DNA of 64,000 bases. Origin: a virus. Lineage: Duplodnaviria > Heunggongvirae > Uroviricota > Caudoviricetes. The position numbers and the translations under genes were made by a program. Positions within the stretch are counted from its first letter, which is position 1. Every line of letters begins with the position of its first letter. Positions 23,828-64,000 of the stretch are shown here, piece after piece. The stretch is taken from IMG/VR virus record IMGVR_UViG_3300012665_001805, one strand, 5' to 3'. The notes under the pieces were generated by a model. It worked only from the letters and a program-made list of their open reading frames with translations. It made no database searches and was not told the DNA's origin.

Positions 23828-23828
23828 T

Positions 23829-28771: not shown

Positions 28772-28776
28772 ATATC

Positions 28777-29241
28777 TTATTCAGGTAATATCCCAATATA
28801 TGAAAGAGCATCCATATAATCACGTTCTTCAAACGTTTTCATATTCTTCATATCCATTTTATATTTCATGAATTCTCCAGGTTTGCCGGGGATTGGATGT
28901 TTTTTCTGGTCTTTTTTAGGGATTTCGATTGCTCTAACAGCAGCCCATCTCCAATTTAAAGCATTTGTACCGTTAGCAAATACCATACCTTTATCTTCAA
29001 CATTAATAGTATTTGGTAACCAAATCAATCCTGTTTTAGTATCAGTCCAAGCTAAATCTTTATACAACTCAGGTAATGTTTCCATTTGTTGTTTATAGAA
29101 TTCATGGTCTTCAGTCATAAATGAGTTAGTCCAGAATCCACATGAAATACTCATGTAAGTGTAAATTTCAGGGGCAACTTGTACTTTATAGCACAAGTCA
29201 CCTCCAGATTTAGGGCAATTTATAATTTCTTCGTGTTGCAT
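28777..29241 (-). CDS. hypothetical protein
   Basis: 154 aa. Confidence 0.3.
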   Translation of the reverse strand: MQHEEIINCPKSGGDLCYKVQVAPEIYTYMSISCGFWTNSFMTEDHEFYKQQMETLPELYKDLAWTDTKTGLIWLPNTINVEDKGMVFANGTNALNWRWAAVRAIEIPKKDQKKHPIPGKPGEFMKYKMDMKNMKTFEERDYMDALSYIGILPE

Positions 29242-30530: not shown

Positions 30531-30539
30531 AACTATTTT

Positions 30540-37566: not shown

Positions 37567-39204
37567 TTACATCATTCCAGCCATCATAGAAGGATCAAAT
37601 CCACCTTCTTTTTTGTCTTCTGGAGTATCAACAATGGTACATTCTGTTAATAGAATTGTTCCTGCAATTGAAGCAGCATTCATAAGTGCATTTTTAGTTA
37701 CTTTATGTGGATCGATAATACCTGCTTCTTTCATATTAACGATAGATTCTGTTTTGATATTATAACCACTCCATGTTCCATCGGTTTTACCAATTTCCAT
37801 ATTGATTGGATACATATCACGCTCATCATATCCTGCGTTATGTAAAATTGTTTCAAATGGTTTACCACATGCTTTGTAAACTAATTTTTTACCATATTTG
37901 AAATCATCTGATTCAGATTTTGAATAAGTAATTCCTTCACGTGCATATAATAAAGCTGAACCCCCACCTGGTACAATACCATCTTCTAAGGCACATTGTG
38001 TAGCATGTAAAGCATCGTCTACACGGTCTTTTTTCTCTTTCATTTCAGTTTCAGTGTTTCCACCTACATGAACTAAAGCAACTCCACCCGCAAATTTAGA
38101 TAAACGTTCTTGCAATTTTTCTGATTCAAATGGAGTAGCAGCTTTCTCAATTTGTGAAGTAAGTTCTTCAGCACGTTTTGAAATTGATTCTTCACTACCA
38201 TTACCATCAACAATTGTTGTTTGTTCTTTAGTAACTGTTACTGTTCGAGCTTCACCAAACCATTCCCAATTGAATTTATCCAATTTCATAGCTTTGTCTT
38301 TATCAAACACAGTACCACCAGTTAAGATAGCAATATCTTCAAGAATCAATTTTCTACGCTCACCAAAGTCAGGTGCTTTAACAGCACATACTTTTAATGT
38401 ACCTCGCATTTTATTTACAATAAGTGTTGCTAATGCTTCACCATCGATATCTTCTGCAATGATTAATAAGGATTTACCTTTTTGAGATACACCTTCTAAG
38501 ATAGGTAATAATTCTTTTACTTGTGTAAAACGGTGATCAGCAATTAAGATGTAAGCATCCGTTAACAATGTTGACATATTGTTATTATTTGTAACAAAGT
38601 ATGGAGATTTATAACCTCTGTCAAATTGCATACCTTCTACAACTTCTAAATATGTTTCGTCTGTTTTAGATTCTTCAATATAAACTACACCTTCACGTCC
38701 TACTTTTTCCATAGCACGAGAGATCAATTTACCTACTTCAGGATCATTATTTGCTGAGATAGTAGCAATTTGTTCTAGTTGTTCTTCGGATGAAATTTTT
38801 TCTGAATTGTCTTTAAGTACTTTAAGTACTTCTTTTACTCCAGCATCAATTCCACGTTTGATTTCAACTGCATTCGCTCCTTCATTTAATTTGGTTAAAC
38901 CACCTTTAACTAATTCACGAGCTAATAAAGTAGATGTTGTTGTACCATCTCCAGCATGATCAGCTGTTTTAATAGCGGCTTGTTTTACCATTTGAGCACC
39001 TAAATCCTCAATTGGATCTTCCAATGAAGCAATTTGTTTTGCTACAGATACACCGTCTTTTGTTGAAACAACCATTCCATTCTCAATATACACAACATTA
39101 CGTCCGTTTGGACCTAAAGTTGCTACTACCGCGTCTGCTAAAGTATCAATACCTTTAACTAATTTTTTTCGAGCTTCTGCTCCAAATTCAATTCTCTTAC
39201 TCAT
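37567..39204 (-). CDS. groEL: chaperonin GroEL (Cpn60)
   Basis: 545 aa; canonical GroEL motifs incl. ATP site DGTTT, LEDGIVPGGG, C-terminal GGM-like tail (MMAGMM). Confidence 0.95.
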   Translation of the reverse strand: MSKRIEFGAEARKKLVKGIDTLADAVVATLGPNGRNVVYIENGMVVSTKDGVSVAKQIASLEDPIEDLGAQMVKQAAIKTADHAGDGTTTSTLLARELVKGGLTKLNEGANAVEIKRGIDAGVKEVLKVLKDNSEKISSEEQLEQIATISANNDPEVGKLISRAMEKVGREGVVYIEESKTDETYLEVVEGMQFDRGYKSPYFVTNNNNMSTLLTDAYILIADHRFTQVKELLPILEGVSQKGKSLLIIAEDIDGEALATLIVNKMRGTLKVCAVKAPDFGERRKLILEDIAILTGGTVFDKDKAMKLDKFNWEWFGEARTVTVTKEQTTIVDGNGSEESISKRAEELTSQIEKAATPFESEKLQERLSKFAGGVALVHVGGNTETEMKEKKDRVDDALHATQCALEDGIVPGGGSALLYAREGITYSKSESDDFKYGKKLVYKACGKPFETILHNAGYDERDMYPINMEIGKTDGTWSGYNIKTESIVNMKEAGIIDPHKVTKNALMNAASIAGTILLTECTIVDTPEDKKEGGFDPSMMAGMM

Positions 39205-39502
39205 TCTCGTCTGTTGTTATAGTTGCTAAAATTTGTTGTTCAGATCCAACATAAAATTCATCTCCATTAAATTGTAATTTAGTGAATCCCATTGTAGGTA
39301 ATACTACGATATCTCCTACTTTTGTTTCTGTTGGGATAAATTCTCCTGTTACAGTATGTTTACCTGGGCCTACTGAAACCACTTCTCCTTGTTCATTTCT
39401 GTCTTTACCTGCATCAGGTACTACAATTGACCCGTACATTGTTTCTTCAGTCTCTAAAGGTTTAACAATAACCGCGTCAAATTTTGCATTTAACTTTCTC
39501 AT
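39197..39502 (-). CDS. groES: co-chaperonin GroES (Cpn10)
   Basis: 101 aa immediately upstream of and overlapping groEL; mobile-loop-like segment, beta-barrel pattern. Confidence 0.8.
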   Translation of the reverse strand: MRKLNAKFDAVIVKPLETEETMYGSIVVPDAGKDRNEQGEVVSVGPGKHTVTGEFIPTETKVGDIVVLPTMGFTKLQFNGDEFYVGSEQQILATITTDENE

Positions 39503-40690: not shown

Positions 40691-43420
40691 CTAGTTGAAT
40701 GTAAAGAACTTTGCTTTAAACGGGTTCAAATTGAAATCCCAACCAATATCATTGTATACGGTTTCTAATTTGTTTCGCATTACACTATCAAATAAACCAT
40801 CTCTATCAATATATTTGTTGATTAATTCAGTAATGTCATCTGGATCATTGTAGCCGTTGTATCCTATAGCATCAATCTGGTATGGGTTTGGTTTTAGATT
40901 GGCTATATACATTTTGTCTCCAATTGTAAATTCAGGGTATTTGACATTAAGTTTCTTGTATCTCAAGAAATCATTGTATCTAATAGCTGCTTTAGTGTTT
41001 ACTGGGCATTTCAATTTTAGTTTAGTAAACAATTCACCTGCCATAGGTCTACGTTCAATATATTCACCCATTTTTTTCAATCCAGTTGGTTTCAATAGCT
41101 TAATCCATTCAATTTCACCTACCATTTGTTTGAATTCCATTACGTCTTTATCTATTTCGGTTTTGGGTTTACCAAATAGGATATTTTTGATCAGGTTTTC
41201 TCCAAAGTTTCTAAATAGAGGTGGGAAGTTGGATTTCATAATATCTAATCCCTTCATCTCTAATTCCTCGATTTCAACACCTTCTTTATTTACAATATAC
41301 ATTGCATAACGGCGTTTACCAGACCAATACGCTTTTTCAGCGATTACCTCTTGTTTGAGTACAAAGTGGTGTGCTTCGGTCATATTAAACAGATCTTGCG
41401 ATATATTGTTTAGATTATCGTTTGCTACTTGTTGTAGTTCCTCAGTCAAGACAAGCAATCGTTTAATTTTCTCTTCACGATCATCATATTTTAAATCTGG
41501 GTTTCTGTGTTTTAACAAGTCCGTTAGTTCCATATAAAGTGAATCGGTATCAGAGGCGATTACAAATGTTCTAGGGTCAATATCTAATTGTTCTGAAATG
41601 TAGTCGTTTACAAATGCAATAGATTCTTTAGTAAGTCTCTGTCCGCTATTGGTAATGGCTGCAGAGCATATTTTGAATCCATCTGTAAAACGCCATGAAT
41701 TAATTGCATACGTACCATATAATGCGTTTTGAAGGATTTTGAATGCCATTTGATACAAGTCATACAATTTGTAGTTTACCCAATCCTCTGATTTACCTGC
41801 TGTTTTCTTAAGTGCTCTATAGTGCTCTCGTTTATCGAACCAATCCTCTAGTACCTCACAAGCTATACTCTTTTGATCCGTTCTATAAAATGCTCCACTG
41901 GCTGAGATAGTCCAATTATTATCTTCAATTAATTTGATTAAAGCACCTACAGCTATTTTAGCATCTTTTAGAGCATAAGTAGATTTGACTAGTTTTTGTA
42001 TATGTAGTTTTTCCTCGGGGTCAAGTTTCTTTAACTGCTCGAGTGAATTATATTGCTCGTAATTGTTTTTTGTAACAATTCTACCTACTAGTGTTTCAAC
42101 ACCCAAATTCAATGATTTGATAATTGAAGGATATAGTGAGGTAAAGTCAAGGTCACTTACATCTGAATATAAGCCAGGGATAGGATCAAGTAAATAACCA
42201 CCTGCGTAACTATCTTTTTTACGGATTGTTTTAGGGTAACGATTTAGATATTTTCCGGACATTGTTTTTACTACAATATTGTCTTTCTCAAAGCTATATA
42301 CAGTACCTTCAATTGTTGGAGTACCTCGTTGATGTATAACGTGATCACCGAGTTCAAGCTCTCTAATGGATGGATTCGTTGTAGTTGGCTTGTTTGGTGC
42401 AATAATATTCTTACGTTTTAAATACGTTAAAATCGCTCCCTCATTCAATGCTGTATTGTAATAGATGGATTCATATGGTGTATGACATAAATGGGAAATC
42501 AAAATAGTCAATTCAATGAACTTTAATTTCTCCTCTAATACCTCAATGATCTCAACATCTCGAATGTTATAGTCAATAAACTTAATTGGGTCTTCTTTAA
42601 ATAAAGTGTCTAAGCTACCATTATACTCAATTTTACCTAACTTAGCATATTTCAAACCAATATCACCTAATTTATATGATGGTTCTTCCTTAGCAATATA
42701 TTTTTTTAACAGCAACATATAATCCAAACTGTTAACAAGTCCAATTCTAATTGGATCGTTTGGTTGAGATAATGTTTCTGTAATTTTACCTACTGGGGAT
42801 AAGCGGTATACTTCATCTCCTAAACGTTTTTGGATTCTATAATACAAATATGGGATATCGAAGAAATCACTATTATAACCTGCAACGATTGTAGGATCCA
42901 TTTGTTCCCATTTGCTTAAGAACTTACGTAATAAAGTGTTTTCATCAGGACAAGATACAATGACTTTACCATCTTGATTCATATCCTCAATCGCACCTGC
43001 TTTATCTAAGATAAAACATATTTTTTCCTTAGTGGAAACATCAATTAAAGCAATAGCTGTAACCTCAGCATTTGCTTCTCTAATTGTTTGTGGTGTAAGG
43101 GCTCCTAGGATTTCGATCTCAATATCCAGATAAACTGTATTGTGATATGAAGGCATATCATCTGATTGGTAATATAGATCTCTTAAGATTACTAGTTCAC
43201 GATCAATATCCTTTTCATAAATTGTAGGATCTTTTCTATCATATTTGCCTTGGAATGGAGAACATCTATCACCAAATAGTGTTTCAAATTCTCCATCCTC
43301 ATCGAGCTTATATAGGGTAGGCCAATATTGGAATTTGTGTATTCCTTTTTTATCGTCCCGTAGATAGTAATGGTACTGATCTTCACCTGGTAACCTGTTA
43401 TAGAAAACAGATTGGTACAT
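40691..43420 (-). CDS. family B DNA polymerase with 3'-5' exonuclease domain
   Basis: Exo I YLDIEIE, motif A DFTSLYPSII, motif C IASDTDSLY; 909 aa. Confidence 0.95.
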   Translation of the reverse strand: MYQSVFYNRLPGEDQYHYYLRDDKKGIHKFQYWPTLYKLDEDGEFETLFGDRCSPFQGKYDRKDPTIYEKDIDRELVILRDLYYQSDDMPSYHNTVYLDIEIEILGALTPQTIREANAEVTAIALIDVSTKEKICFILDKAGAIEDMNQDGKVIVSCPDENTLLRKFLSKWEQMDPTIVAGYNSDFFDIPYLYYRIQKRLGDEVYRLSPVGKITETLSQPNDPIRIGLVNSLDYMLLLKKYIAKEEPSYKLGDIGLKYAKLGKIEYNGSLDTLFKEDPIKFIDYNIRDVEIIEVLEEKLKFIELTILISHLCHTPYESIYYNTALNEGAILTYLKRKNIIAPNKPTTTNPSIRELELGDHVIHQRGTPTIEGTVYSFEKDNIVVKTMSGKYLNRYPKTIRKKDSYAGGYLLDPIPGLYSDVSDLDFTSLYPSIIKSLNLGVETLVGRIVTKNNYEQYNSLEQLKKLDPEEKLHIQKLVKSTYALKDAKIAVGALIKLIEDNNWTISASGAFYRTDQKSIACEVLEDWFDKREHYRALKKTAGKSEDWVNYKLYDLYQMAFKILQNALYGTYAINSWRFTDGFKICSAAITNSGQRLTKESIAFVNDYISEQLDIDPRTFVIASDTDSLYMELTDLLKHRNPDLKYDDREEKIKRLLVLTEELQQVANDNLNNISQDLFNMTEAHHFVLKQEVIAEKAYWSGKRRYAMYIVNKEGVEIEELEMKGLDIMKSNFPPLFRNFGENLIKNILFGKPKTEIDKDVMEFKQMVGEIEWIKLLKPTGLKKMGEYIERRPMAGELFTKLKLKCPVNTKAAIRYNDFLRYKKLNVKYPEFTIGDKMYIANLKPNPYQIDAIGYNGYNDPDDITELINKYIDRDGLFDSVMRNKLETVYNDIGWDFNLNPFKAKFFTFN

Positions 43421-43435: not shown

Positions 43436-43711
43436 TTATTTTTTACGTGTTGTAGTCTTTTTAGGGATAACTACTTCCTCTACAGTTGGTTCTTCAACTA
43501 CTACTTCTTCTACTACCTCTACAGTTGGTTCTTCAATAATTACTTCTTCTACTACCTCTACAGTTGGTTCTTCAACTACTACTTCTTCAGTAGGAAATAA
43601 AGATGCTTCTAATTCATTAAGTAAATTCATAGTTTCAGTATACTTAATATTTGGTTGGGACCAATAAGTAGCATGTTTTAAACTAGCTATAATTTCTTGT
43701 GGTGTTCTCAT
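43436..43711 (-). CDS. acidic repeat protein (EEPTVEVVEEV repeats)
   Basis: three tandem 16-aa repeats encoded by ~48-bp DNA repeats. Confidence 0.45.
   Translation of the reverse strand: MRTPQEIIASLKHATYWSQPNIKYTETMNLLNELEASLFPTEEVVVEEPTVEVVEEVIIEEPTVEVVEEVVVEEPTVEEVVIPKKTTTRKK
43455..43600. repeat. tandem direct repeat, ~48-bp unit x3
   Basis: ctacagttggttcttcaa(c/t)(t/a)a(c/t)tacttcttctactacct repeated. Confidence 0.7.
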
Positions 43712-43713: not shown

Positions 43714-44394
43714 TTATTTATTTAAAAATTGTGTTAGATTTGGTCTAAAGTAATTAATGTTTTTCATTACCTTTCTGTCACGCGTTCTATAGACGATATA
43801 ATATCTACCAACCTTCTCATAGTGACATGCTTCCTCTTGCTCGGAAGAACGTACTCTAACGGTTTCTTGTGCCTCTTCTTCGCTTGTACAAGCTTTGCTA
43901 AGATTGGACGCTTGTACTTCTTGATACGCGGGCCATACTTTATTCTTAAGACCATGTAGCATAGCACCGTTACCCAATGAAACATAGGTAATGTCACATA
44001 GAGCATCAAGAACTTCAACAATGTTTCCCGTTTCACAAGCGTGTTTGTATTCTTCAAGTTCTTCCAAAATAAAATTATAGACAAACATCCACTCCTTCTC
44101 ATCGGGAATGACCGGGGTATAATTATTTGGTTTCCCCATAATTGCATTAAATTCTTCAACTTCTGATACAAATGGAACATAGGCGTCTTTCATTTGGGAG
44201 ATTTCTTGATTTAATCGAGACCATTCTTTAGTTACATCATTTCCAAGTTCAATTTTAGACATCATAGAAAGATCTACTACTTGACTTGTTAATAAATTAA
44301 TTAACTCTGTTTGTTTTTGTTCTAGGGTCATAGGGATTGCTTTTTTAGCTAGGAATGGAAGTATTTTATTTTTATATGCTTTAAAAGTTCTCAT
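43714..44394 (-). CDS. MazG-like nucleoside triphosphate pyrophosphohydrolase (all-alpha NTP-PPase)
   Basis: EELEEYKHA ... EVLDALCDI E-x2-E ... D metal-binding pattern. Confidence 0.5.
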   Translation of the reverse strand: MRTFKAYKNKILPFLAKKAIPMTLEQKQTELINLLTSQVVDLSMMSKIELGNDVTKEWSRLNQEISQMKDAYVPFVSEVEEFNAIMGKPNNYTPVIPDEKEWMFVYNFILEELEEYKHACETGNIVEVLDALCDITYVSLGNGAMLHGLKNKVWPAYQEVQASNLSKACTSEEEAQETVRVRSSEQEEACHYEKVGRYYIVYRTRDRKVMKNINYFRPNLTQFLNK

Positions 44395-45089
44395 ATCTGA
44401 TGTCCTCCATTATTAATTTTTAATGAATCAAAGAATTCTTTACGTGCTTGATTATTATTTTCCATAAACACACCTGATGCTTTAGTTGTAACCATTGAAG
44501 CACCTTGGTGTTTAACACCTCTACAAGATACACAATTGTGGGTTGCTACTACTGTAACAATTACACCTCTGTTTTTCTCACAAATTTTATCTACTGCTTG
44601 GTGAATAGCTGCTGTTAATTGTTCTTGGATAGCACCTCTACGACCAAAATGTTCTACAATTCGGTTCAATTTAGATAATCCAATTACTCGACCTTCATCT
44701 CCAACGATATAACCAATATGAACTACTCCTCCAATTGTTTGGTGGTGGTGAGAACACATTGAAGTTAATGGGATGTTTCTCTCAATTACGATACCATTAT
44801 ATCCGTCTGAAGGAAATGAAGTAATATCTGACATTGCTGTATATCTACCTGAAAATAAATCGAATACATAAGCTTTAGCTACACGTCTAGGTGTATTATC
44901 GGAGTTTGGATCGTTTTCCCAATCAACACCTAATGCTGTAAGGAATTCACCATACGCTTTTTCAGCTTTATCAACCATTTCCCATTTTTGTTCTTCGGTA
45001 AGGGGGAACCCAGGTGCAACTCCATTCGCGAAACCTGTTTTAACACACTCTAAATCAGTGTGGTTTTTTCTACGTTTGTTTTCTGACAT
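44391..45089 (-). CDS. folE: GTP cyclohydrolase I (FolE)
   Basis: SMCSHHHQ (cf. SMCEHHL), VIGLSKLNRIVE, HQAV...RGV motifs. Confidence 0.9.
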   Translation of the reverse strand: MSENKRRKNHTDLECVKTGFANGVAPGFPLTEEQKWEMVDKAEKAYGEFLTALGVDWENDPNSDNTPRRVAKAYVFDLFSGRYTAMSDITSFPSDGYNGIVIERNIPLTSMCSHHHQTIGGVVHIGYIVGDEGRVIGLSKLNRIVEHFGRRGAIQEQLTAAIHQAVDKICEKNRGVIVTVVATHNCVSCRGVKHQGASMVTTKASGVFMENNNQARKEFFDSLKINNGGHQI

Positions 45090-45345
45090 ATAACTTAATT
45101 AATTTATGTATTTAATGTATGAAGGATATTTGGGGTATCCAAGTTAAAATGAGGGGAGCGAATCAAAATCAATAATCTAGTCCGGGTTCAAAGAGATTTA
45201 AATTTATTGAAATGCGCGAGGATTGATGTTTTGAGTTTTTGAATTTTGATTGGGCGTACCTTATCATCATCACTTATCCGCTATGTGGCTCATAGTTGAA
45301 TTGTAAGAACATCGAAAATCAATTTCTCATCACTCCCTACTCAAA

Positions 45346-45774
45346 TTAAATTTGTGTTGTTGCGTTATGAACGTCCAACTCAGCTTGAATTTCTTCAATT
45401 CTTGCTTCTAATGTTTGCACCATCGTATCAAGTTGGGCAATATTAATTTCTACTTCTTTTACAGATACTACTGAGCTGTATCGTGCTTCAGATTTTCCTT
45501 CTTCCGTTGGAATTTTTCTTAATTCCTTGATACGGTTTTTTAACTCAGCCATACGGAAAATCTTATCGTATACCGGAGCGTTTGCTAGATGGATTTTAGT
45601 TTTTAACTCTGTTAACTCTAAAGTTAACTCAACTGCTTTATCCAATGCTGCTTGCACCGAATAACGTCTAATATTCCCTTCTTCTTGGGAATTAAATTTT
45701 TGTGCAATTTGGTATTGCTTTTTTAGTTCAATAACTAATTTGTTTTTTTGCTTTAATGCTTGAGATACATTCAT
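45346..45774 (-). CDS. coiled-coil hypothetical protein
   Basis: 142 aa heptad-rich. Confidence 0.3.
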   Translation of the reverse strand: MNVSQALKQKNKLVIELKKQYQIAQKFNSQEEGNIRRYSVQAALDKAVELTLELTELKTKIHLANAPVYDKIFRMAELKNRIKELRKIPTEEGKSEARYSSVVSVKEVEINIAQLDTMVQTLEARIEEIQAELDVHNATTQI

Positions 45775-45822
45775 GACTTTTATTTTTGTTATAATATACT
45801 AAATTTATTTACATTATCCAAG

Positions 45823-46317
45823 TTAGAGTGCGTAAATATAATCTAAATTACGCTCTTTTTTATTGTTATCCATCCCATAACCTACTACCCATTCATCTTG
45901 AATTATGAAACCATAATGTAAAGGATAATCAGGTATTGGAGAGATATCTCTAGTTAATAAAGTAACTACTTCTATTGTCTTAGGGTTGAAACTAGATAAA
46001 TGATTTACAATAGAATCTAAAGTAGTTCCAGAATCATAAAAATCATCTACTACATATACCGTTTTTCCTTCAATATCTGCTTCAATATCTTTTGTAATGT
46101 GAACTACACCTTGATCTTGACCATTATATGATTTAGCTCTCATAAAATCAAATTCAACATCTGTTGACATGTTTCTTACTAAATCACTAAAGAACATAAC
46201 TCCACCATTTAATACACAAATCATTACAACATCATCATTTTCAGTGTGTTTAAAATCAATGGTGTGAGCCATTTCTGTTACTTTATCTTGGATTTGTTTA
46301 GATGTAAATAAAATCAT
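45823..46317 (-). CDS. hypoxanthine/guanine phosphoribosyltransferase-like PRTase
   Basis: PRPP motif VYVVDDFYDSGTTL; C-terminal WVVGYGMD...RNLDYIY (cf. Hpt FVVGYGLDYAERYRNLPYI). Confidence 0.8.
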   Translation of the reverse strand: MILFTSKQIQDKVTEMAHTIDFKHTENDDVVMICVLNGGVMFFSDLVRNMSTDVEFDFMRAKSYNGQDQGVVHITKDIEADIEGKTVYVVDDFYDSGTTLDSIVNHLSSFNPKTIEVVTLLTRDISPIPDYPLHYGFIIQDEWVVGYGMDNNKKERNLDYIYAL

Positions 46318-47099
46318 TATACTCCTCTTTTTGTATCAAATGCAATAATATGATCTCTACCTGTCATATTGTATCCTTTTTCAGCACACATATCAAATAC
46401 AAGTGGATACATTTTAATTAATTCCTCTCTAGTATCTCCTGCTGGCATGATATAGGTTTTATCTTTAGGGATCTCTAGAAATTGTCTAATATCTTCAATT
46501 TCATTTAGATTTTCCTCTGTACCATCCCATACTGGTTTAAAGTGGTAATCTGTGTGAAAGTCGATCATCGCAGCCATTGCACTCAAGTTCATTCTCAACT
46601 TGTTGTGTTGGTTGACCATCTTTTGATCCGTGATTGCACCCGATGGTGTAGGAGTACCCACAACGGGTACACTATTACTAAACTTAGGACTAAGAGATAT
46701 AAGCCCAATAGGATAGTCAGTGTCAAGAAAATGCGACCCTTCAGTTTCAATAGTGATAAGAATACCTCTTTCATGAGCAAAATGTGTCAATTCGTTAACC
46801 AATTTTGGATGCATTGTAGGTGAACCTCCAGTTAACATCATTTCTTTGATGTGTGGATTTTCATCATAAATTTTGATGATATCATTAAAGGTAAACGTAC
46901 CTTTTTCTGGGTGGATACTTGTGTACCAAGAATCACACCATCCGCCTTCACCAAAGAAGCAACGGTGAGTACAACCTGTTGTGCGAACTGCAATCGTTGG
47001 ACGTCCAAAACGAGATCCCTCACTTTGAACGCAACGATATAGTTCTATAATAGGTAAAACTTTGTTATAATCTTCTATTCTTCCTAAAGTAGATTCCAT
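46317..47099 (-). CDS. queE: 7-carboxy-7-deazaguanine synthase (QueE, radical SAM)
   Basis: PIIELYRCVQSEGSRFGRPTIAVRTTGCTHRC...WCDS aligns with B. subtilis QueE N-terminus; unusual Cx3Cx7C spacing. Confidence 0.7.
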   Translation of the reverse strand: MESTLGRIEDYNKVLPIIELYRCVQSEGSRFGRPTIAVRTTGCTHRCFFGEGGWCDSWYTSIHPEKGTFTFNDIIKIYDENPHIKEMMLTGGSPTMHPKLVNELTHFAHERGILITIETEGSHFLDTDYPIGLISLSPKFSNSVPVVGTPTPSGAITDQKMVNQHNKLRMNLSAMAAMIDFHTDYHFKPVWDGTEENLNEIEDIRQFLEIPKDKTYIMPAGDTREELIKMYPLVFDMCAEKGYNMTGRDHIIAFDTKRGV

Positions 47100-47332
47100 T
47101 TTTCTTTTACTTGTGCTTCTGTTAAAACTCCGATTGACTTGTCTGCTTCTTGTCCGTCTTTCAAGAAAACTAACATTGGTACGCTTCGTACGCTATATTG
47201 AGCAGATAATGTTGGATTTTCATCCACGTTGATGAAACGTACAGGCATTGAATTACTTACGCGTTCCATAATAGGTTTGAAATTTCTGCATGGTCCACAC
47301 CATGGGGCACTAAAATAAAGAATTTCTTTCAT
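47084..47332 (-). CDS. thioredoxin
   Basis: WCGPC active site, 82 aa. Confidence 0.85.
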   Translation of the reverse strand: MKEILYFSAPWCGPCRNFKPIMERVSNSMPVRFINVDENPTLSAQYSVRSVPMLVFLKDGQEADKSIGVLTEAQVKEKWNLL

Positions 47333-47389
47333 TTTGTTAAAATATATGTAAATTTAATATCACCAAATGTAGTGGTGGAAATATAATAA

Positions 47390-47866
47390 TTATCCTTCAT
47401 AAATACTAGAGTTATTGTCGTTTTCGAAACATTCTACTTTGATTACTCGGCAACGTCCCGCGTCTGTTTTAGATAGTACTTCATTAAAATGATCAAATAC
47501 TAACTTAGCACATGATTCTGCGCCCATTTTGTCCATTACTCGAAGTGCACATAAACCTTCCATTGCTGCTGATTCGAAAAAGTCTAAGTATGGATCATCC
47601 TTCTCGATCAACAATGTGTGATCCCACATATAGTTCATCCAAGATTTCAAACCATTACCTTTAGGTGCATCTTTGAACCCACCGTAATCAACGATCCAGT
47701 TCATGTCATCTAATTGATTTTCCTCTAGTGGTTCGTTTGAAGCAAACCATACTTTGAATTTCAAAGCATAACCATGTAACAATTCACAATGTGAGTGAGA
47801 TGCTCTCCATTGTCTAAGTGCTACTGAATAATTTTCAAATAATTTTGTACTAATATATCTACCCAT
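47390..47866 (-). CDS. queD: 6-carboxy-5,6,7,8-tetrahydropterin synthase (QueD)
   Basis: SHSHCELLHGY (cf. E. coli HKCGRLHGH), WDHTLL (cf. LDHHYL). Confidence 0.7.
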   Translation of the reverse strand: MGRYISTKLFENYSVALRQWRASHSHCELLHGYALKFKVWFASNEPLEENQLDDMNWIVDYGGFKDAPKGNGLKSWMNYMWDHTLLIEKDDPYLDFFESAAMEGLCALRVMDKMGAESCAKLVFDHFNEVLSKTDAGRCRVIKVECFENDNNSSIYEG

Positions 47867-47867
47867 T

Positions 47868-48128
47868 TTAATTTATTTTATCGTAAGTTAATTCAAAGAT
47901 ATCAGGTTTACACGGATAAAATTCTCCTTTAACACCTTTAATAACATAATCGTTCCAAGAAAGTTCCATATCTCCTTCTAAAGTTCTTATAAAGTGGTAT
48001 AATGCTTCACCATCAGCTGAAGGGGTTACTATTAGGTTATTACCTAACATTTCATATACTTTTTCAATGTTATCAGATACGAATTGGATCGCTTCAATTT
48101 CAACTGGTTTTTTTCTGTATCTACCCAT
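47868..48128 (-). CDS. hypothetical protein
   Basis: 86 aa. Confidence 0.3.
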   Translation of the reverse strand: MGRYRKKPVEIEAIQFVSDNIEKVYEMLGNNLIVTPSADGEALYHFIRTLEGDMELSWNDYVIKGVKGEFYPCKPDIFELTYDKIN

Positions 48129-48299
48129 TTTTCTTTGTTGTTTTAGGTTTTTTAATTTCTGTATCTATATCGGTTAATTCGATAGTTACGTACTCGGGGA
48201 AGAACATATTTAATCCTACCCCGGTACAAATTTTAATGGTTCTTTTCTTTGCCATAACTTTTTGGTGTAATTCCCAGTTTATAATGCTTTTATCTTGCA

Positions 48300-48653
48300 T
48301 TATAGAGTAACTGTAAAAATTTGTTTGATAACAATTTCATTTGCTTCATATTTGTTATCTAATTTTTTAGCTACAGCAAAATCAATTGATACTCCTGGTT
48401 TATCTTCAATCCACATTTCTGTGATAAATTCGGAAGATTTAATTCCGTTGTGTTTATTGCGTGTTACTTTGAATACTGCTACTTTTACTTGTTGATTCAT
48501 GCTTGTTCCGTTATTATTTAATGTTAAACCTCCGTAAATGGTTGTTCCTGTTGTTAATGTTGTTCCTGATGTGTAATCGCCATTGAACATTCCGTTAAAT
48601 GATGTCGATGGGGTTGCACCTAGTGCTGTGTGTGTTGTTGGTGTGTTAAACAT
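48300..48653 (-). CDS. hypothetical protein, Thr/Gly-rich N-terminus
   Basis: 117 aa; no Cys, so not QueF. Confidence 0.3.
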   Translation of the reverse strand: MFNTPTTHTALGATPSTSFNGMFNGDYTSGTTLTTGTTIYGGLTLNNNGTSMNQQVKVAVFKVTRNKHNGIKSSEFITEMWIEDKPGVSIDFAVAKKLDNKYEANEIVIKQIFTVTL

Positions 48654-48656
48654 ATT

Positions 48657-49556
48657 TTAATTATTATGAGTTTCTAATACTTTTGTTACTTCTTCTACTA
48701 CATGTTCCCATGTTACGGGGCCATTCTCGTTTGCATACTTTGCAGGATCAGGACGACCTAATTTAATAAAGGCCTCTACACGCTCCACGGAACTTGCTGA
48801 TTTGTAATCAGAATACCATTCACCGAATTTAGTTCTAAGTGTTTCTTCTACTCGAGATGAAGCAGGTGCATATTCAATATAAATTGGTTTGTAAGATGTA
48901 TTTGTACGTGAATATACTTCCTCGAATTTAAGACCTAATTTATTACATAATCCTTCTCCATCTTGTAAGATAGTAAATTTATCACCTTCAAGATATGGTG
49001 TAAAGTAACCTACTTTTTCAGAACCCCAATTTCCAATTCTGAATGCTGCATCATCGGCATCACGGAATTCTTGTCTGCAATCTGGATAAATAGCATGATC
49101 ACCAGCGTGAATACCCATTGCAATATCACATTGTTCACCTGTTTTATCAGCGATTGAAAGTGCAACTGCTTGAGTAATTGAAGCAAAGATTTTGTTACGA
49201 TTAGGAACAACTGTTGCTTTCATATTTTCTTCAGCATAATGTCCTTCAGGTACTTCATCTCCACCTGTTACTAGTGCTGAATTAAGCAGATCTACTAGTC
49301 CATTTAATTGGATTTGGCGGTAGTTAACATGAGGGTATACTTCAATAAACCCATCAGGAAGTTTATTATGCGCATACATTCGTGTAGGATTATCATTTAA
49401 ATAATCTACTAATGATTGAGCGCGTTCAAGCTCAACTCTATGTTTTTGACCATAGTCAAAACTCAATGCTGTTACTGTATCGTACTCTTTCAAGCAACGA
49501 AGTAACAATGTAGAGGAGTCCATCCCTCCGCTAAGACTAACTACTACGTGTTTCAT
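48657..49556 (-). CDS. queC: 7-cyano-7-deazaguanine synthase-like PP-loop ATPase (QueC-like, extended C-terminus)
   Basis: N-terminal VVSLSGGMDSST PP-loop; 299 aa vs ~230 typical, lacks obvious C-terminal Zn Cys cluster. Confidence 0.7.
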   Translation of the reverse strand: MKHVVVSLSGGMDSSTLLLRCLKEYDTVTALSFDYGQKHRVELERAQSLVDYLNDNPTRMYAHNKLPDGFIEVYPHVNYRQIQLNGLVDLLNSALVTGGDEVPEGHYAEENMKATVVPNRNKIFASITQAVALSIADKTGEQCDIAMGIHAGDHAIYPDCRQEFRDADDAAFRIGNWGSEKVGYFTPYLEGDKFTILQDGEGLCNKLGLKFEEVYSRTNTSYKPIYIEYAPASSRVEETLRTKFGEWYSDYKSASSVERVEAFIKLGRPDPAKYANENGPVTWEHVVEEVTKVLETHNN

Positions 49557-49565
49557 ATTTTTTTA

Positions 49566-49817
49566 TTAAAATGGTAAATCATCATCTTCTAGTACTTTTG
49601 TACTCCAGTCAATTTCACCAGGTAAATCATCTGCTGGTCTAAAATAGAAATCCAAGAAATCTTTAGGGTATAAATGTACTGTACCTGTATATTTTGGATT
49701 TGAAATTTCTCTGTTTTGTGGTTTGATACCACCTTTATAAGCTGCCTGTGCAACTTCACCACCTAGTTCTTTACCTGCTGGTTTTCCTAGATAATCATAT
49801 AAACTTAAATATTCCAT
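49566..49817 (-). CDS. hypothetical protein
   Basis: 83 aa. Confidence 0.3.
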   Translation of the reverse strand: MEYLSLYDYLGKPAGKELGGEVAQAAYKGGIKPQNREISNPKYTGTVHLYPKDFLDFYFRPADDLPGEIDWSTKVLEDDDLPF

Positions 49818-49864
49818 AACTTTTTATTTGTATAAATATAATAAAAGAAAATATGGACTCCAAA

Positions 49865-50662
49865 TTAGAGCCCATTTATTTCACGAAACATACTAACATT
49901 CCAATCAATAAGATCTTCATTAATGAAATCAATACTTACATCTTGGTATTTATTCATATTTGCAATTGGTTTCATATGTAATCCCATTTTTGTATAAGGC
50001 ATTTCACCAATTGCAGCCATAATTGGATTTGATGTATCAATTGATTCAATACAAGGAATATTTTTATACATTCCAAATTCAATAGGTGATGCAGTTCCAA
50101 GCAAATGTACTCGATCATGTTGAGTTAACATTTTATCTTTATATAAACCACTCAAAACCATGTAACGACCAATTGCTTTACCCAAATCTACATTTGGATG
50201 CGGGCACATTTCACTATGGTAGTATTCAGCACCATATGAAAATGCAATTTTCTTGTATCCAAAATCACGATATGCTTGAACACATAAAAGTGCTTCATGT
50301 GATGATTTTGCTTGCACTACAGCTACTTTAATGGTATTGGATGGCATTTCAACACCTGCCCATTGTTTTGCATTTCTAACTGAAGAGGCATAATCTTCCC
50401 ATACATCTGGTACGATGAATTCGTTTGGTTTGATTTCATTTACCCAATGCATTAGGCGTTCTGAATTATAGGCTTCACCTAGTTCATGTAATGAATTATC
50501 CATTACAATATATCGTCCCATTTTCTTTGATTCATAGAAGAAATTACGGTATTCTTCATTTTCATCCATTAAGTGAGGTAAACAATAATCATAATCATTG
50601 AAAGCTCTACTCTGTTCTAAGAGGCAAAATGGTACCTCGTGGCTAATTTTTACTTTTTTCAT
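49865..50662 (-). CDS. tRNA-guanine-transglycosylase-superfamily protein, DpdA-like (candidate DNA 7-deazaguanine transglycosylase)
   Basis: 265 aa; VMDNSLHEL and RVHLLGTASP resemble TGT DSGG and HLxGxG motifs; heads the deazaguanine cluster. Confidence 0.5.
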   Translation of the reverse strand: MKKVKISHEVPFCLLEQSRAFNDYDYCLPHLMDENEEYRNFFYESKKMGRYIVMDNSLHELGEAYNSERLMHWVNEIKPNEFIVPDVWEDYASSVRNAKQWAGVEMPSNTIKVAVVQAKSSHEALLCVQAYRDFGYKKIAFSYGAEYYHSEMCPHPNVDLGKAIGRYMVLSGLYKDKMLTQHDRVHLLGTASPIEFGMYKNIPCIESIDTSNPIMAAIGEMPYTKMGLHMKPIANMNKYQDVSIDFINEDLIDWNVSMFREINGL

Positions 50663-52466: not shown

Positions 52467-52834
52467 TTATTGTCGTAATTATATTTAAAGCTTCCTATAT
52501 ATTGTTTATTCCATTCATTTGGGTTAATTAAAGATAAAAAAACTTTATCATCATTCCCACAGTAAAGGTGATAAATTTCACCAATTACCGGTTCGAAACT
52601 AAATTTTGATTGATAAACCAAATCGTTCCAATTATATTCATCAATTAGTTTTTGATATTCTGCTTTTAATTCATCAAATTTTGATTGAAATTGTTTATTA
52701 ACTTTGTTAACTCTAATTTGTTTCCAAGCATCAATATTATCAACAATAATTGATGGAGCACCTACATTTGATCCATAAGGTAATATGTTGGGGTTATCAG
52801 CAACATTATCTGGTTTTTTATCAGTCATACTCAA
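52439..52834 (-). CDS. hypothetical protein
   Basis: 131 aa. Confidence 0.3.
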   Translation of the reverse strand: MSMTDKKPDNVADNPNILPYGSNVGAPSIIVDNIDAWKQIRVNKVNKQFQSKFDELKAEYQKLIDEYNWNDLVYQSKFSFEPVIGEIYHLYCGNDDKVFLSLINPNEWNKQYIGSFKYNYDNKWIKTEWNY

Positions 52835-53931
52835 TTGGATAGTGGTGCTTTAATATGTGGGTGTGATTCGTAATTGTTCATTGTAAAAAAGTCGGGTCTA
52901 AACTTTTCTATTTTTTCATCAAATGGAATAGGACCAACTAATTCTTCATCCATTAAGTAATGATATTCATCTAAACACCAAAGTTCAGGTAATTTCATTG
53001 GCTCTCTTGTGATTTGTTCTTTAGCTTGTTCAATATGATTTGAATATAAATGAACATCACCTAAATTTCCAATTAATTCATCAGGTATCATATTGACTTC
53101 TTTTGCTAAGATTGTAAGTAATAATCCATAAGAAGCAATGTTGAATGGTAAACCTAAGAATGTATCTACACTTCGTTGGTTCCACATTAGAGAGATTGCT
53201 CGTTTAGGAGTTGACTCTTTCCATATTTCCTCTAAAAAATAATTTTGTTTCAATTTAGTATACTCATCAGTATTTTTTTTAACCCAATTTATTCGTTCTT
53301 CCCAAGTCAATTCTCTTGTATAAACTTGAAATCCATAATGACAAGGTGGGAGAGTCATTTGGTCTAACTCACCTACATTCCAAGCATTGACCATCAATCG
53401 TCTTGAGTCTGGGTTGGTTTTAAGGTCGTTGATTATGTTTTGGATTTGGTCTATGCCGGCCAATCCTTCAAATTCTCTTTCTGAACTATTCCAATCTCTC
53501 CATTGCTTACCATAAATTGGACCTAAATCACCAAACTCTTTTTCATGCCACTTATCTAAACAAATTGCCTTAGCTAACTCCTCCTGTGTAAGCTTTCTAG
53601 GTACCTCAAATGGTGTAGTTTTACTCATATGCTCATACCACTTTTCAAACGCTTTATAAGCATCACCATCCCAAATATGGCAATTATTTTCAACTAAATA
53701 CTTAATATTTGTATCGCCACGCAAGAACCAAATCAATTCGGTTGCAATTGTTTTAAATGGCATTTTTTTGGTTGTTAGTAAAGGAAACCCCTCAGACATC
53801 TTGTGTCTAATTTGTCTCCCAAATACTGAGATAGTACCTGTTCCAGTTCTATCTTGTTTTTGGACTCCATTGTCTAGGATATCCTTTAGAAGTCTAAGGT
53901 AATCATGTTCTATATTGTTTACAAGTCCCAT
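52831..53931 (-). CDS. thyA: thymidylate synthase ThyA homolog with two ~45-aa insertions
   Basis: DRTGTGT, ELIWFLRGDTN, PPCHYGFQVY (catalytic Cys), DTFLGLPFNIASY (Asn retained), GDVHLYSNH; 366 aa vs 264. Confidence 0.85.
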   Translation of the reverse strand: MGLVNNIEHDYLRLLKDILDNGVQKQDRTGTGTISVFGRQIRHKMSEGFPLLTTKKMPFKTIATELIWFLRGDTNIKYLVENNCHIWDGDAYKAFEKWYEHMSKTTPFEVPRKLTQEELAKAICLDKWHEKEFGDLGPIYGKQWRDWNSSEREFEGLAGIDQIQNIINDLKTNPDSRRLMVNAWNVGELDQMTLPPCHYGFQVYTRELTWEERINWVKKNTDEYTKLKQNYFLEEIWKESTPKRAISLMWNQRSVDTFLGLPFNIASYGLLLTILAKEVNMIPDELIGNLGDVHLYSNHIEQAKEQITREPMKLPELWCLDEYHYLMDEELVGPIPFDEKIEKFRPDFFTMNNYESHPHIKAPLSN

Positions 53932-63319: not shown

Positions 63320-64000
63320 TTATTGTTTAATTAATTTATTATAAATAGTAGTTTCGTTATCTAAAGATAAATTTACTACATACATTCCCGGAGCTAATTT
63401 ACCTAAATCTTTTACATATGTAAATTGTCCTGATGGTAGTTCACCTTCTAGGATTGTAATTATTTTTCTACCTTGTAAATCATAAATTGCTAAATGTGCT
63501 TTTGTATCAATATTTACATTAAAAGTAATAGCAACATCATCTAATACTGGATTGGGGTTAACTTCAATTGTATTTGGAGCAATCAATTTACCATTTACTG
63601 ATTTTAATACTTGTAATATTCCGTTTGTTGGAGTAATTTCAAGATCTTTTGCGTAAGTATCTCCTGCAAATTTATCAGTTGTATAAAGTGGACTTTCAGC
63701 CCAATCGTTTTGTGGTTGTTTAGCTAAAAATTGTAATGTAATTACCTCACTACCATCTTGTAATAAATTGTTATTTGTTGGATCATATCCACCCCATTTA
63801 ATTTCGTCGTTGTTTGGGTTGATATATGTTAACCACTTCATTACGTTCGAAGTAGAATATGCACTTTTAAATTCAAGTACTGTTGGATCATATTTTAATC
63901 CAAATTGTAATGAATTTAATGTTTTTCCATTTGTAAATACTTTTACAGGAATATTAACTAAATTTCCAGCATCTACAGCTAAACGAGGTACGTTTACTTC
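63320..64000 (-). CDS. T9SS (Por) C-terminal sorting domain protein, 5'-partial (continues beyond window)
   Basis: C-terminal ~80 aa NPNPVLDDVAITFNV...AIYDLQGRKIITIL...GMYVVNLSLDNETTIYNKLIKQ fits T9SS CTD; reading frame stays open upstream of the annotated Met to the window edge. Confidence 0.6.
   Translation of the reverse strand, partial: EVNVPRLAVDAGNLVNIPVKVFTNGKTLNSLQFGLKYDPTVLEFKSAYSTSNVMKWLTYINPNNDEIKWGGYDPTNNNLLQDGSEVITLQFLAKQPQNDWAESPLYTTDKFAGDTYAKDLEITPTNGILQVLKSVNGKLIAPNTIEVNPNPVLDDVAITFNVNIDTKAHLAIYDLQGRKIITILEGELPSGQFTYVKDLGKLAPGMYVVNLSLDNETTIYNKLIKQ

Follow-up and report, generated by a model that had tools for sequence, protein, structure and literature searches.

The window analysed here, a 64-kb stretch of viral DNA that covers ~37% of a roughly 170-kb genome, contains a minus-strand operon in which genes for 7-deazaguanine biosynthesis accompany a gene for a DpdA3-family transglycosylase (Table 1). 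The ORF list reproduced exactly the coordinates and the minus-strand orientation that an earlier, sequence-only reading had assigned to the genes it named. FolE, QueD, QueE and QueC are encoded on the same strand within 6 kb of one another, and likewise in the 80 related viral loci of our comparison set. The phage also encodes 25 tRNAs of its own.

Table 1. Features of the operon and its immediate surroundings
Feature	Coordinates	Strand	Basis
DpdA3-family guanine/7-deazaguanine transglycosylase of 265 aa; minimal TIM barrel of the TGT fold, lacking a Zn site	49865..50662	-	DpdA3 homology and structure
Candidate terminator-like hairpin, 10 pairs and T-run, overlapping the DpdA3 stop codon	49853..49875	-	Consensus match alone
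p83, small acidic protein, SSB-tip-like C-terminus (…EDDDLPF)	49566..49817	-	Clade-specific neighbour of DpdA3
QueC (preQ0 synthase), Zn-less variant with insertions and C-terminal tail	48657..49556	-	PF06508 7e-35
Three variable inserted ORFs (p86, p59, p117), outside the conserved module	47868..48653	-	In 2/80, 5/80 and 1/80 loci
QueD (CPH4 synthase), C-x3-HGY subtype	47390..47866	-	PF01242 1e-10; phrog_2389 3e-30
Thioredoxin (WCGPC), kept within the operon	47084..47332	-	PF00085 3e-17
QueE (CDG synthase, radical SAM)	46317..47099	-	phrog_2076 6e-49; TIGR03365 7e-15
HGPRT-type 6-oxopurine phosphoribosyltransferase, proposed guanine recycler	45823..46317	-	TIGR01203 1e-43; PDB HGPRT/HGXPRT 8e-31
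Variable inserted ORF p142, outside the conserved module	45346..45774	-	In 1/80 related loci; no family match
FolE (GTP cyclohydrolase I)	44391..45089	-	PF01227 3e-44; phrog_2197 2e-58
MazG/HisE-like all-alpha NTP pyrophosphohydrolase	43714..44394	-	PF01503 1e-8; phrog_671 9e-26
Family-B DNA polymerase (PolB), directly downstream of the operon (context)	40691..43420	-	ORF list and locus comparison

Profile searches detected all four families of the preQ0 pathway, and bore out the earlier calls of a thioredoxin, an HPRT and a MazG-like protein as well. FolE, QueD, QueE and QueC score below the NCBIfam equivalog cut-offs, which is common for divergent phage proteins. The QueD subtype is common to the window and the phages immuto and phiST, and QueC is 77% identical over its full length to that of immuto. 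The extended C-terminus that had been remarked on in QueC is real: it comprises two variable insertions and a conserved tail, and the four cysteines that would bind Zn are lost. In the window, the window clade and immuto, NTSYKP…SDYKSASSVE stands in place of the C-terminal Zn-binding motif (C…CxxCxxC); this motif is missing also from a Stenotrophomonas phage QueC, and present in the QueC of Vibrio phage VpKK5. Neither QueF nor a glutamine-amidotransferase fusion was found among the scanned window ORFs, as the sequence-only reading had held, and the window encodes no DpdN, DpdM, DpdL, ArcS or Gat-QueC.

The ORF that heads the operon had been placed in the TGT superfamily, an assignment that simple profile searching does not recover. 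ORF 49865-50662 gave no Pfam TGT (PF01702), NCBIfam or PADLOC DpdA match at E<=0.01, the sole profile match being to DUF6610 (DpdA4 family, E=0.005), and an hhalign comparison with a thin TGT/DpdA profile was unsuccessful. Such a profile failure had been named beforehand, together with virion DNA containing only canonical dG, as grounds for abandoning a DNA-modification role; formally the profile failure is what we found, but structure and DpdA3 homology outweigh it. The first detection of DpdA3 likewise required HHpred (Hutinet 2023, PMC10516641). By tblastn, the protein is 34.4% identical to its immuto counterpart (E 2e-41), 34-35% identical to those of the CP220 group (E about 1e-35) and 22% identical to that of phiST (E 2e-5), and it matches phrog_19058 (4e-39). 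The structure model has a TGT-type TIM-barrel fold, with the DNA enzyme DpdA as top structural match. Residue D209 aligns with residue 276 of the 7ui4 construct, which corresponds to Asp256 after a 20-residue tag offset that also puts Leu236 and Phe265 correctly. The nucleophilic Asp of the strand that follows the H/Y-L-x-G motif is retained as D209, and is conserved in 82 of 83 DpdA3 sequences, the single exception being an alignment gap. Three further residues (D55, D86 and Q117), candidates for the general acid/base Asp and for the base-recognition Asp and Gln/His, are unchanged in 83/83 sequences, and the model puts them at the C-terminal tips of consecutive beta strands. The structural Zn site (CxCxxC…H) is absent from the window enzyme, in which C127 is the only conserved Cys, no Cys cluster occurs and the sequence stops at residue 265. 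Homology and modelling confirm the ORF as a minimal TGT/DpdA-fold enzyme of the DpdA3 family, with the Asp nucleophile, further putative catalytic aspartates and a predicted activity. The family spans about 3,600 clusters at 50% identity, and no GenBank phage relative of the window clade exceeds 35% DpdA3 identity. Activity in vitro or in E. coli has yet to be demonstrated for any DpdA3 protein (Hutinet 2023, PMC10516641).

The phosphoribosyltransferase (PRTase) scores 148.6 bits against TIGR01203 (cut-off 150) and matches PDB HGPRT over its full length. Its PRPP loop (VVDDFYDSGTT) keeps the Asp, and Arg (TLLTR) stands where we would place the 6-oxo-binding Lys by reference to the E. coli and human enzymes. 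This HGPRT resembles a standard 6-oxopurine enzyme, which favours guanine recycling over the variant chemistry that had been offered earlier as an option beside nucleotide-level salvage. Among the loci with both QueE and FolE, the PRTase is of the HGPRT type in 21/32 and of a small XGPRT-like type in 11/32, which shows that a 6-oxopurine PRTase is an obligatory, constant operon part for which two unrelated types are interchangeable. Queuovirinae-type phages have a third form, fused to FolE. Neither of the two key papers on the system mentions a PRTase as an operon component.

The thioredoxin (PF00085, 62.9 bits) occurs in 48 of the 52 loci holding QueD and QueE, with CxPC in nearly all clade homologues; candidate roles are redox upkeep of Zn/Cys or Fe-S enzymes, or of ribonucleotide reductase. 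The MazG-like protein (PF01503, 36 bits; cut-off 21.3) has an invariant EExxE…ExxD metal motif (E111, E112, E115, E127 and D130) and no sequence match in the PDB. Its gene is present in 21/21 loci holding FolE and PolB, and (d)GTP pool control and house-cleaning are candidate roles. The sequence-only reading had set the thioredoxin, HPRT and extended QueC apart as non-canonical; these three and MazG are conserved in the operon clade-wide, and PRTase, MazG and the QueC form are also found in immuto, although the co-conservation of PRTase, thioredoxin and MazG inside one clade partly reflects shared descent. A p83 homologue is present in 42/80 related loci, with the tail [DE][DE]DLPF kept in about 30 of these 42, and p83 has no PHROG or PADLOC family match.

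We consider it likely that this phage operon serves to replace genomic guanine with a 7-deazaguanine, most probably preQ0. This core of the sequence-only reading is supported by the DpdA3 homology to phages with complete replacement, the fold, the catalytic Asp and the lack of QueF and tailoring genes. By homology, FolE, QueD, QueE and QueC make preQ0 as a free base from GTP, with H2NTP, CPH4 and CDG as intermediates. DpdA3 would then exchange guanine for preQ0 at the glycosidic bond of phage DNA, by double displacement as in TGT/DpdA. All three DpdA3 phages analysed by mass spectrometry show 100% G replacement, compared with 30% or less for DpdA1, DpdA2 and DpdA4 (Hutinet 2023, PMC10516641). 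Exchange in the window phage would probably be near-complete as well, and may block host restriction at G-containing sites. Judging by its enzyme class, HGPRT would use PRPP to return the guanine expelled at each exchange to GMP, and hence GTP, a loop in which guanine from DNA or the pool becomes preQ0 and the host purine pool is undrained. Restriction-site (palindrome) statistics of the window were uninformative on G replacement.

The absence of QueF, DpdN, DpdM, DpdL, ArcS and Gat-QueC from the window leads us to predict dPreQ0 as the end product. We think it less probable that the same system makes a different final base. Arrest of the Zn-less QueC at the amide stage, or a hydratase working on the DNA, would give dADG, and QueF and tailoring genes beyond the window, which shows about 37% of the genome, would give a preQ1 derivative. 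The characterized DpdA3 phages carry dADG (CP220), dDG (phiST) and fdPreQ1 (immuto), and none has dPreQ0 (Hutinet 2023, PMC10516641). The loss of the canonical Zn site from QueC also speaks for another base. Against this, the closely similar immuto QueC must yield the nitrile for QueF, and QueF or DpdN was found within 10 kb in 0/80 clade loci. Furthermore, none of eight clade contigs of 122-174 kb is among the 80 IMG/VR contigs listed with an immuto-like QueF, in a scan that picks up close relatives of immuto QueF only.

Immuto is similar to the window in FolE (60% identity), QueE (68%), QueD (41%) and the MazG-like hydrolase (gp208, 76%), in carrying a purine PRTase gene between those for QueE and FolE, and in the wider gene order ThyA, thioesterase, cluster, polymerase, GroES/EL. 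Unlike immuto, the window lacks QueF, the DpdN formyltransferase and an AAA_28 kinase-like gene, has thioredoxin and p83, carries HGPRT instead of the small XGPRT-like PRT and PolB instead of PolA, has DpdA3 at the head of the operon, and is predicted to make dPreQ0 rather than fdPreQ1. The DpdA3 proteins of CP220 (a Campylobacter phage, Firehammervirus; 35% identity) and phiST (a Cellulophaga phage) share the invariant active-site residues. PhiST also has a MazG-like gene in its cluster and a small PRT elsewhere in its genome; in contrast to the window, it encodes the DpdL decarboxylase, the genes of CP220 are scattered, and in both phages a P-loop kinase-like gene adjoins DpdA3. In Queuovirinae-type clusters, such as that of VpKK5 (QueE-QueC-QueD-[XGPRT-like domain fused to FolE]-DpdA-clamp-PolA), a preQ0 pathway and DNA transglycosylase again lie beside a polymerase and a 6-oxopurine PRT is physically linked to FolE. 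These differ in their DpdA subfamily (about 306 aa, annotated queuine tRNA-ribosyltransferase), their fused PRT and their lack of thioredoxin and MazG in the cluster, and VpKK5 in its canonical Zn-binding QueC. The bacterial DpdA of the Salmonella Montevideo Dpd restriction-modification system (PDB 7ui4; PMC10164549) is 17% identical to the window enzyme and longer (413 versus 265 aa), and modifies <0.1% of G (Hutinet 2023, PMC10516641). No DpdB ATPase, DpdC or DpdD-K restriction gene was found, and no PADLOC Dpd model matches any cluster ORF. In contrast to bacterial DpdA, the window enzyme has no Zn site, and carries an invariant Gln at the position of DpdA His181, as in TGT.

Complete replacement could also arise before replication, with DpdA3 acting on mononucleotides rather than DNA. 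Here the MazG-like enzyme would make dGMP and remove dGTP, and DpdA3 would exchange the base (dGMP + preQ0 -> dPreQ0-MP + guanine), with the PRTase recycling guanine; alternatively, the PRTase would make a preQ0 ribonucleotide from PRPP, like ToyH/TubE (toyocamycin, tubercidin), for reduction by a thioredoxin-dependent RNR. Kinases would then supply dPreQ0-TP to the adjacent PolB, building a G-free genome with 100% replacement by construction. We regard both this scheme and such a role for DpdA3 as unlikely, but several observations are consistent with it: the contrast in replacement levels between DpdA3 and other DpdA phages, the obligatory PRTase, the lack in DpdA3 of the Zn subdomain of TGT and DpdA, and the constant NTP pyrophosphatase neighbour (in the 21/21 clade loci, immuto and phiST), whose slot is occupied by a dUTPase-family gene in loci L005-L007. 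An HD-domain protein adjoins DpdA3 in CP220, and a small P-loop kinase-like gene does so in immuto, CP220 and phiST and in 67/68 immuto-clade loci. Cap10 provides a precedent for a TGT-fold enzyme with a non-nucleic-acid acceptor, and a report cited in Hutinet 2023 (PMC10516641) describes the ADG nucleoside from the cytoplasm of CP220-infected cells. On the other side, all characterized nucleic-acid-modifying TGT/DpdA enzymes act on polynucleotides, no kinase is found in the operon of the window clade or anywhere in the 64-kb window, and HGPRT retains the Asp contacting purine N7, which is missing from 7-deazapurines. The small XGPRT-like PRT domain also occurs as a FolE fusion in Queuovirinae-type phages that encode DpdA, a group whose published model is post-replicative, so a PRTase is not specific to complete replacement; the DpdA proteins of these phages are likewise small and acidic, which makes size and charge uninformative here. 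MazG genes are, moreover, common in marine phages without a 7-deazaguanine pathway. Known pre-replicative systems are T4 hmC (dCTPase, dCMP hydroxymethylase and dNMP kinase) and the Z-genome (MazZ, PurZ and DatZ). The window recalls these, as a resemblance only, in its pyrophosphatase beside a polymerase, its nucleotide-salvage enzymes and the complete replacement in its relatives, but we know of no window enzyme that acts on a mononucleotide, and the transglycosylase fold is otherwise polynucleotide-acting.

It is highly improbable that the operon instead supplies preQ0 for Q- or archaeosine-like modification of host or phage tRNAs, in which case DpdA3 would be a tRNA-guanine transglycosylase, or that it is an auxiliary metabolic module that stimulates host Q or folate/pterin metabolism. 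The nearest characterized homologues belong to phages whose DNA carries 7-deazaguanine at 100% by mass spectrometry, the top structural match is a DNA enzyme, and the operon is tied to a DNA polymerase gene across the clade. DpdA3 lacks the Zn subdomain and extra domains of TGT/ArcTGT, which serve tRNA binding, and there is no QueF in the window or within 10 kb in the clade loci to make preQ1, the substrate of bacterial TGT.

Replacement of guanine by 7-deazaguanines in phage DNA via DpdA3 was already described in 2023, and the window adds a member from a new, uncultured lineage. It represents a large clade of phages with genomes of roughly 160-175 kb, whose hosts are probably Bacteroidota. 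This clade would be the first DpdA3 lineage with dPreQ0 as its predicted end product. The obligatory PRTase suggests a purine-economy loop, in which expelled guanine is returned through GMP and GTP to preQ0. The recurring pyrophosphatase, kinase-like and PRTase neighbours sharpen the question of how complete (100%) replacement is reached in DpdA3 phages, and are concrete candidates for enzyme assays.

The minus-strand operon of the window is very probably a DpdA3-type 7-deazaguanine DNA-modification system, a kind already known, and its presence is therefore no surprise to a specialist. The sequence-only reading had placed the 265-aa DpdA3 protein in the TGT superfamily, and had named failure to match TGT/DpdA profiles, together with virion DNA containing canonical dG alone, as what would reduce the cluster to a supply module for Q precursors or tRNA modification. 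No such match was found with the Pfam TGT, NCBIfam and PADLOC Dpd models, DUF6610 (E=0.005) being the sole hit. Against the PDB, the sequence gave no significant match and its profile reached 7ui4, a bacterial DpdA from Salmonella Montevideo, at only E=1.3. Comparison with a three-sequence TGT/DpdA alignment in hhalign (probability 0.2%) was uninformative, because the template profile is thin and badly aligned. The profile failure is nevertheless overridden by stronger evidence from homology, the fold and the active site. DpdA3 is 34–35% identical, over 97–98% of its length, to a Campylobacter CP220-group protein and to gp206 of Flavobacterium phage vB_FspM_immuto (immuto), which is annotated as 'DNA guanine transglycosylase', and 22% identical to CGPG_00065 of Cellulophaga phage phiST. 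The name DpdA3 was given to exactly these proteins by Hutinet et al. 2023 (PMC10516641), with complete replacement of G in all three phages: by dADG in CP220, dDG in phiST and fdPreQ1 in immuto.

The DpdA3 profile segment HLLG…IDTSNP aligned to VHLLG…IDSTTP of 7ui4, in which Leu236, Asp256 and Phe265 fit the published numbering (PMC10164549) once a 20-residue tag offset is allowed for. By this alignment, D209 of the window protein corresponds to the nucleophile Asp256 and L188 to the stacking Leu236. Across 83 DpdA3 sequences, including those of immuto, CP220 and phiST, D55, N56, D86, Q117, R166 and H186 are strictly invariant, as are L188, G189, E195 and D209 save for one alignment gap. We take this pattern to mirror D102, D156, Q203, G230 and D280 of Zymomonas TGT, the mapping being putative for residues other than D209 and L188. 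The fold of DpdA3, its catalytic Asp and the enzyme families of the operon are established; we infer its nucleic-acid substrate, the completeness of replacement and the identity of the base. Compared with DpdA and TGT, it lacks the Zn site, has one conserved Cys and is only ~265 aa long. The family comprises 3582 clusters (50% identity, E≤1e-3), nearly all standalone. Its rare fusions have a formyltransferase partner, as in the natural DpdN-type fusions P0415 and P0444 (447 aa), or carry homing-endonuclease motifs, and no kinase or PRT fusion was seen in the domain-fusion survey of the family. Net charge and pI, tried as a proxy for DNA binding, were uninformative because they equal those of bona fide DpdA and Tgt, and restriction-site (palindrome) avoidance, a proxy for modification, gave no clear signal.

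All of the ORFs named from sequence alone were recovered on the minus strand at exactly the coordinates assigned to them. The genes lie close together, with overlaps between the stop of FolE and the start of MazG, between the stop of QueE and the start of HPRT and, over 16 nt, between Trx and QueE. Profile searches confirmed FolE (PF01227, 3e-44), QueE (phrog_2076, 6e-49; TIGR03365, 7e-15), QueD (PF01242, 1e-10; phrog_2389, 3e-30), QueC (PF06508, 7e-35) and a thioredoxin with the active site WCGPC (PF00085, 3e-17). The HPRT-like call was borne out by TIGR01203 (1e-43; 148.6 bits against a cut-off of 150) and by full-length matches to HGPRT/HGXPRT chains in the PDB (8e-31), and the MazG-like call by PF01503 (1e-8) and phrog_671 (9e-26), which identify a MazG/HisE-like NTP pyrophosphohydrolase. 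The window as a whole is a dense minus-strand run of phage genes of ~32% GC. Its other features are included in the table below; the acidic-repeat ORF between MazG and PolB had no counterpart in related loci.

Coordinates of features in the window and in related loci (L numbers), with identity to immuto
Feature	Sequence	Coordinates (strand)	Identity to immuto	Remarks
DUF932 paralogues (two)	Window	55-864, 1684-2430 (-)		
SPFH/Band-7 protein	Window	4302-5249		
RNA-repair-like set	Window	6554-10377 (-)		Beside tRNA array
RNA ligase	Window	6554-7705 (-)		
AAA_33 P-loop kinase-like protein	Window	7916-8299 (-)		
Calcineurin-like phosphoesterase	Window	9670-10377 (-)		
25-tRNA array	Window	10985-13996 (-)		Most amino acids; three tRNA-Met(CAU), two tRNA-Gln
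Glycan/sugar-nucleotide island	Window	16911-31979 (-)		GC 27-30%; GT2, DUF707, RmlD-like reductase, DegT aminotransferase, HAD phosphatase-like, methyltransferase, GT2, two GT1
GroES/GroEL pair	Window	37567-39502 (-)	59% and 45% (GroEL 59%)	
PolB	Window	40691-43420 (-)		
91-aa ORF	Window	43436-43711 (-)		Tandem acidic repeats EEPTVEVVEEV, three copies
MazG-like	Window	43714-44394 (-)	76%	
FolE	Window	44391-45089 (-)	60%	
PRTase (HGPRT)	Window	45823-46317 (-)		
QueE	Window	46317-47099 (-)	68%	
Thioredoxin (Trx)	Window	47084-47332 (-)		
QueD	Window	47390-47866 (-)		
QueC	Window	48657-49556 (-)	77%	
p83	Window	49566-49817 (-)		Directly downstream of DpdA3
DpdA3	Window	49865-50662 (-)		
ThyA	Window	52831-53931 (-)	55%	366 aa, internal insertions
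Thioesterase	Window		63%	
T9SS C-terminal sorting-domain protein (Por_Secre_tail)	Window	63320-63841 (-)		
Kinase-like gene adjoining DpdA3	L001	13478-14002		
Kinase-like gene adjoining DpdA3	L002	12813-13355		
Kinase-like gene adjoining DpdA3	L008	7472-7951		
Kinase-like gene adjoining DpdA3	L092-L171			
Trimeric-dUTPase-family gene	L005	9386-9823		Between FolE and DpdA3
Trimeric-dUTPase-family gene	L006	6289-6729		Between FolE and DpdA3
Trimeric-dUTPase-family gene	L007	2569-3009		Between FolE and DpdA3
PRT-FolE fusion	L009	5754-6647		Stenotrophomonas phage
PRT-FolE fusion	L010	5998-6900		Vibrio phage VpKK5 gp32

Of the known systems, that of Immutovirus is the closest, and gene order in the window and immuto is broadly alike. 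However, Immutovirus has QueF, DpdN and a kinase-like gene, which the window lacks, whereas the window has Trx, p83 and HGPRT, which Immutovirus lacks. The polymerase family also differs: the window enzyme belongs to family B and is 26–32% identical to cyanophage gp43-type polymerases, while immuto has PolA. The immuto ThyA is, like that of the window, enlarged (423 aa). By megablast, the 7-kb region had no DNA-level match among GenBank phages; an identical DpdA3 is also recorded on a 171 535-bp JGI contig. The T9SS sorting-domain protein points to a host among the Bacteroidota, a prediction from gene content. The operon does not belong to the bacterial Dpd system, since no DpdB–K models match.

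The extended QueC proposed earlier is real: besides a conserved tail at the C-terminus, it has two insertions that vary. All four of its Zn-ligand cysteines are lost, the canonical HTCYNG…GCGECPAC being replaced by NTSYKP…SDYKSASSVE. The same form occurs in immuto, a phage that has QueF as well and whose base derives from preQ1, so the Zn-less enzyme should still yield the nitrile preQ0. QueD has the motif C-x3-HGY in place of C-x3-HGH, as in immuto and phiST; it groups with the QueD of these phages and is unrelated to phiST DpdL, and its candidacy as a DpdL-like decarboxylase was rejected. Among the 80 clade loci, nine carry a QueD at least 70% identical to that of the window and 48 one at ~40%, two allele classes that indicate cassette swapping inside the operon. 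The claim that QueF is absent held for the window ORFs, and neither the 64-kb window nor the 80 clade loci contain homologues of QueF, DpdN (formyltransferase) or AAA_28 (kinase-like). Similarly, none of eight clade contigs (122–174 kb) is among 80 listed IMG/VR contigs with an immuto-like QueF, a test that sees close relatives only. On this evidence dPreQ0 is the most likely product, given DNA modification, and with ~37% of the genome visible we hold it to be somewhat better than an even prospect. No characterized DpdA3 phage ends at dPreQ0.

Thioredoxin, HPRT and the extended QueC had been set apart as non-canonical. We scored every cluster gene in 80 IMG/VR loci with a DpdA3 56–86% identical to that of the window, and Trx, PRTase and MazG proved to be core operon parts, not peculiarities of the window. 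The consensus, on one strand, is DpdA3 > (p83) > QueC > Trx/QueD > QueE > PRTase > FolE > MazG > PolB. Trx is present in 48 of the 52 loci with QueD and QueE, at a position that varies (ahead of QueD, behind QueE or between the two), and MazG in all 21 with FolE and PolB. The ORFs p142, p86, p59 and p117 are sporadic inserts, each in at most 5 of 80 loci. No protein of the module is more conserved than MazG, with 87–93% identity across most of the 120 best of 6534 homologues; it had no match among PDB sequences, and its AF2 model reached a pLDDT of 47.6 (shallow alignment, 84–94% identity). The C-terminus of p83 (…EDDDLPF) ends in a tail, [DE][DE]DLPF, kept in ~30 of 42 homologues; immuto, CP220 and phiST have no p83. 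This tail is similar to the tip at the C-terminus of SSB in bacteria (DDDIPF in the E. coli protein), and p83 may act as an adaptor or decoy in the replisome or SSB interactome.

Exactly one PRTase was found in each of the 32 clade loci with both QueE and FolE: 21 have the HGPRT type of the window, 11 the small type of immuto gp211, and none has both or neither. The two types share nothing but the PRPP loop, although each has matches in the PDB among 6-oxopurine salvage enzymes: HGPRT/HGXPRT for the former, and Sulfolobus purine PRT GpT-1 and GpT-2 and E. coli XGPRT for the latter. The window-type enzyme retains the loop Asp that contacts purine N7 in the human and E. coli enzymes, which suits guanine more than it does a 7-deaza base. 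The small PRT is also found in phiST-group phages, and weaker signs of it are seen in phages of Stenotrophomonas and Pseudomonas. In Vibrio phages of the VpKK5 type, a ~300-aa 'GTP cyclohydrolase' adjoining DpdA has this PRT as its N-terminal ~115 residues (XPRT, 7e-5). Pfam detects only the FolE part of such fusions, and the XGPRT-like match of the Stenotrophomonas phage fusion is weaker than that of VpKK5. Non-orthologous displacement of the PRTase in one operon, together with fusion to FolE in another lineage, argues for a functional link between guanine/xanthine PRTase activity and the 7-deazaguanine pathway. Hutinet 2019 and Hutinet 2023 (PMC10516641) make no mention of phosphoribosyl, salvage or thioredoxin, and our literature search on a PRTase–7-deazaguanine link or on a route acting before replication gave no relevant result.

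In the mechanism that we favour, FolE, QueD, QueE and QueC would convert GTP to preQ0, which DpdA3 would exchange for G in phage DNA by double displacement with an Asp nucleophile, as established for TGT and DpdA (PMC10164549). The PRTase would convert the expelled guanine back to GMP and GTP, supplying FolE, a recycling role that we infer. The most interesting alternative is that DpdA3 acts on a nucleotide, before replication. Complete (100%) replacement is confined to DpdA3 phages, and an NTP pyrophosphatase always accompanies DpdA3, whether MazG-like (window clade, immuto, phiST), a dUTPase-family gene in the MazG slot (L005–L007) or an HD-domain protein (CP220). A P-loop kinase-like gene also flanks DpdA3 in immuto, CP220, phiST and 67 of 68 immuto-clade loci. 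However, no kinase of this sort occurs in the window clade, the PRT–FolE fusion is carried by Queuovirinae-type phages with DpdA, whose published model is post-replicative, and no mononucleotide-acting TGT-fold enzyme is known; we consider the pre-replicative route less probable than the favoured one. BLAST and HMM searches with AAA_28 proteins found no kinase of the DpdA3-adjacent type in the window. Elsewhere, these neighbours belong to AAA_28 or AAA_18 and are annotated 'thymidylate kinase'; the canonical free-base pathway offers them no phosphorylation step. The L005–L007 contigs belong to the immuto clade, and their dUTPase-family gene may be a case of one dNTP pyrophosphatase having displaced another.

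A preQ0 cluster could instead serve tRNA, and the window does encode 25 tRNAs, including all four GUN species (Asp-GUC, Asn-GUU, His-GUG and Tyr-GUA). Such a role is unlikely given the DNA phenotypes of phages carrying DpdA3 homologues, a structural ranking that puts DpdA first, the absence of QueF and the linkage of the operon to a polymerase gene. The tRNA array accounts for the GC bump at 10–14 kb. The small P-loop protein nearby was rejected as a DpdA3 kinase and read as RNA repair because an RNA ligase, a phosphoesterase and the array adjoin it; the set may be a tRNA-repair module against host anticodon nucleases.

With DNA modification by DpdA3 as the preferred reading, the comparison newly shows that a PRTase is obligatory and that pyrophosphatase and kinase-like genes recur beside DpdA3, observations that open the question of complete replacement to experiment.
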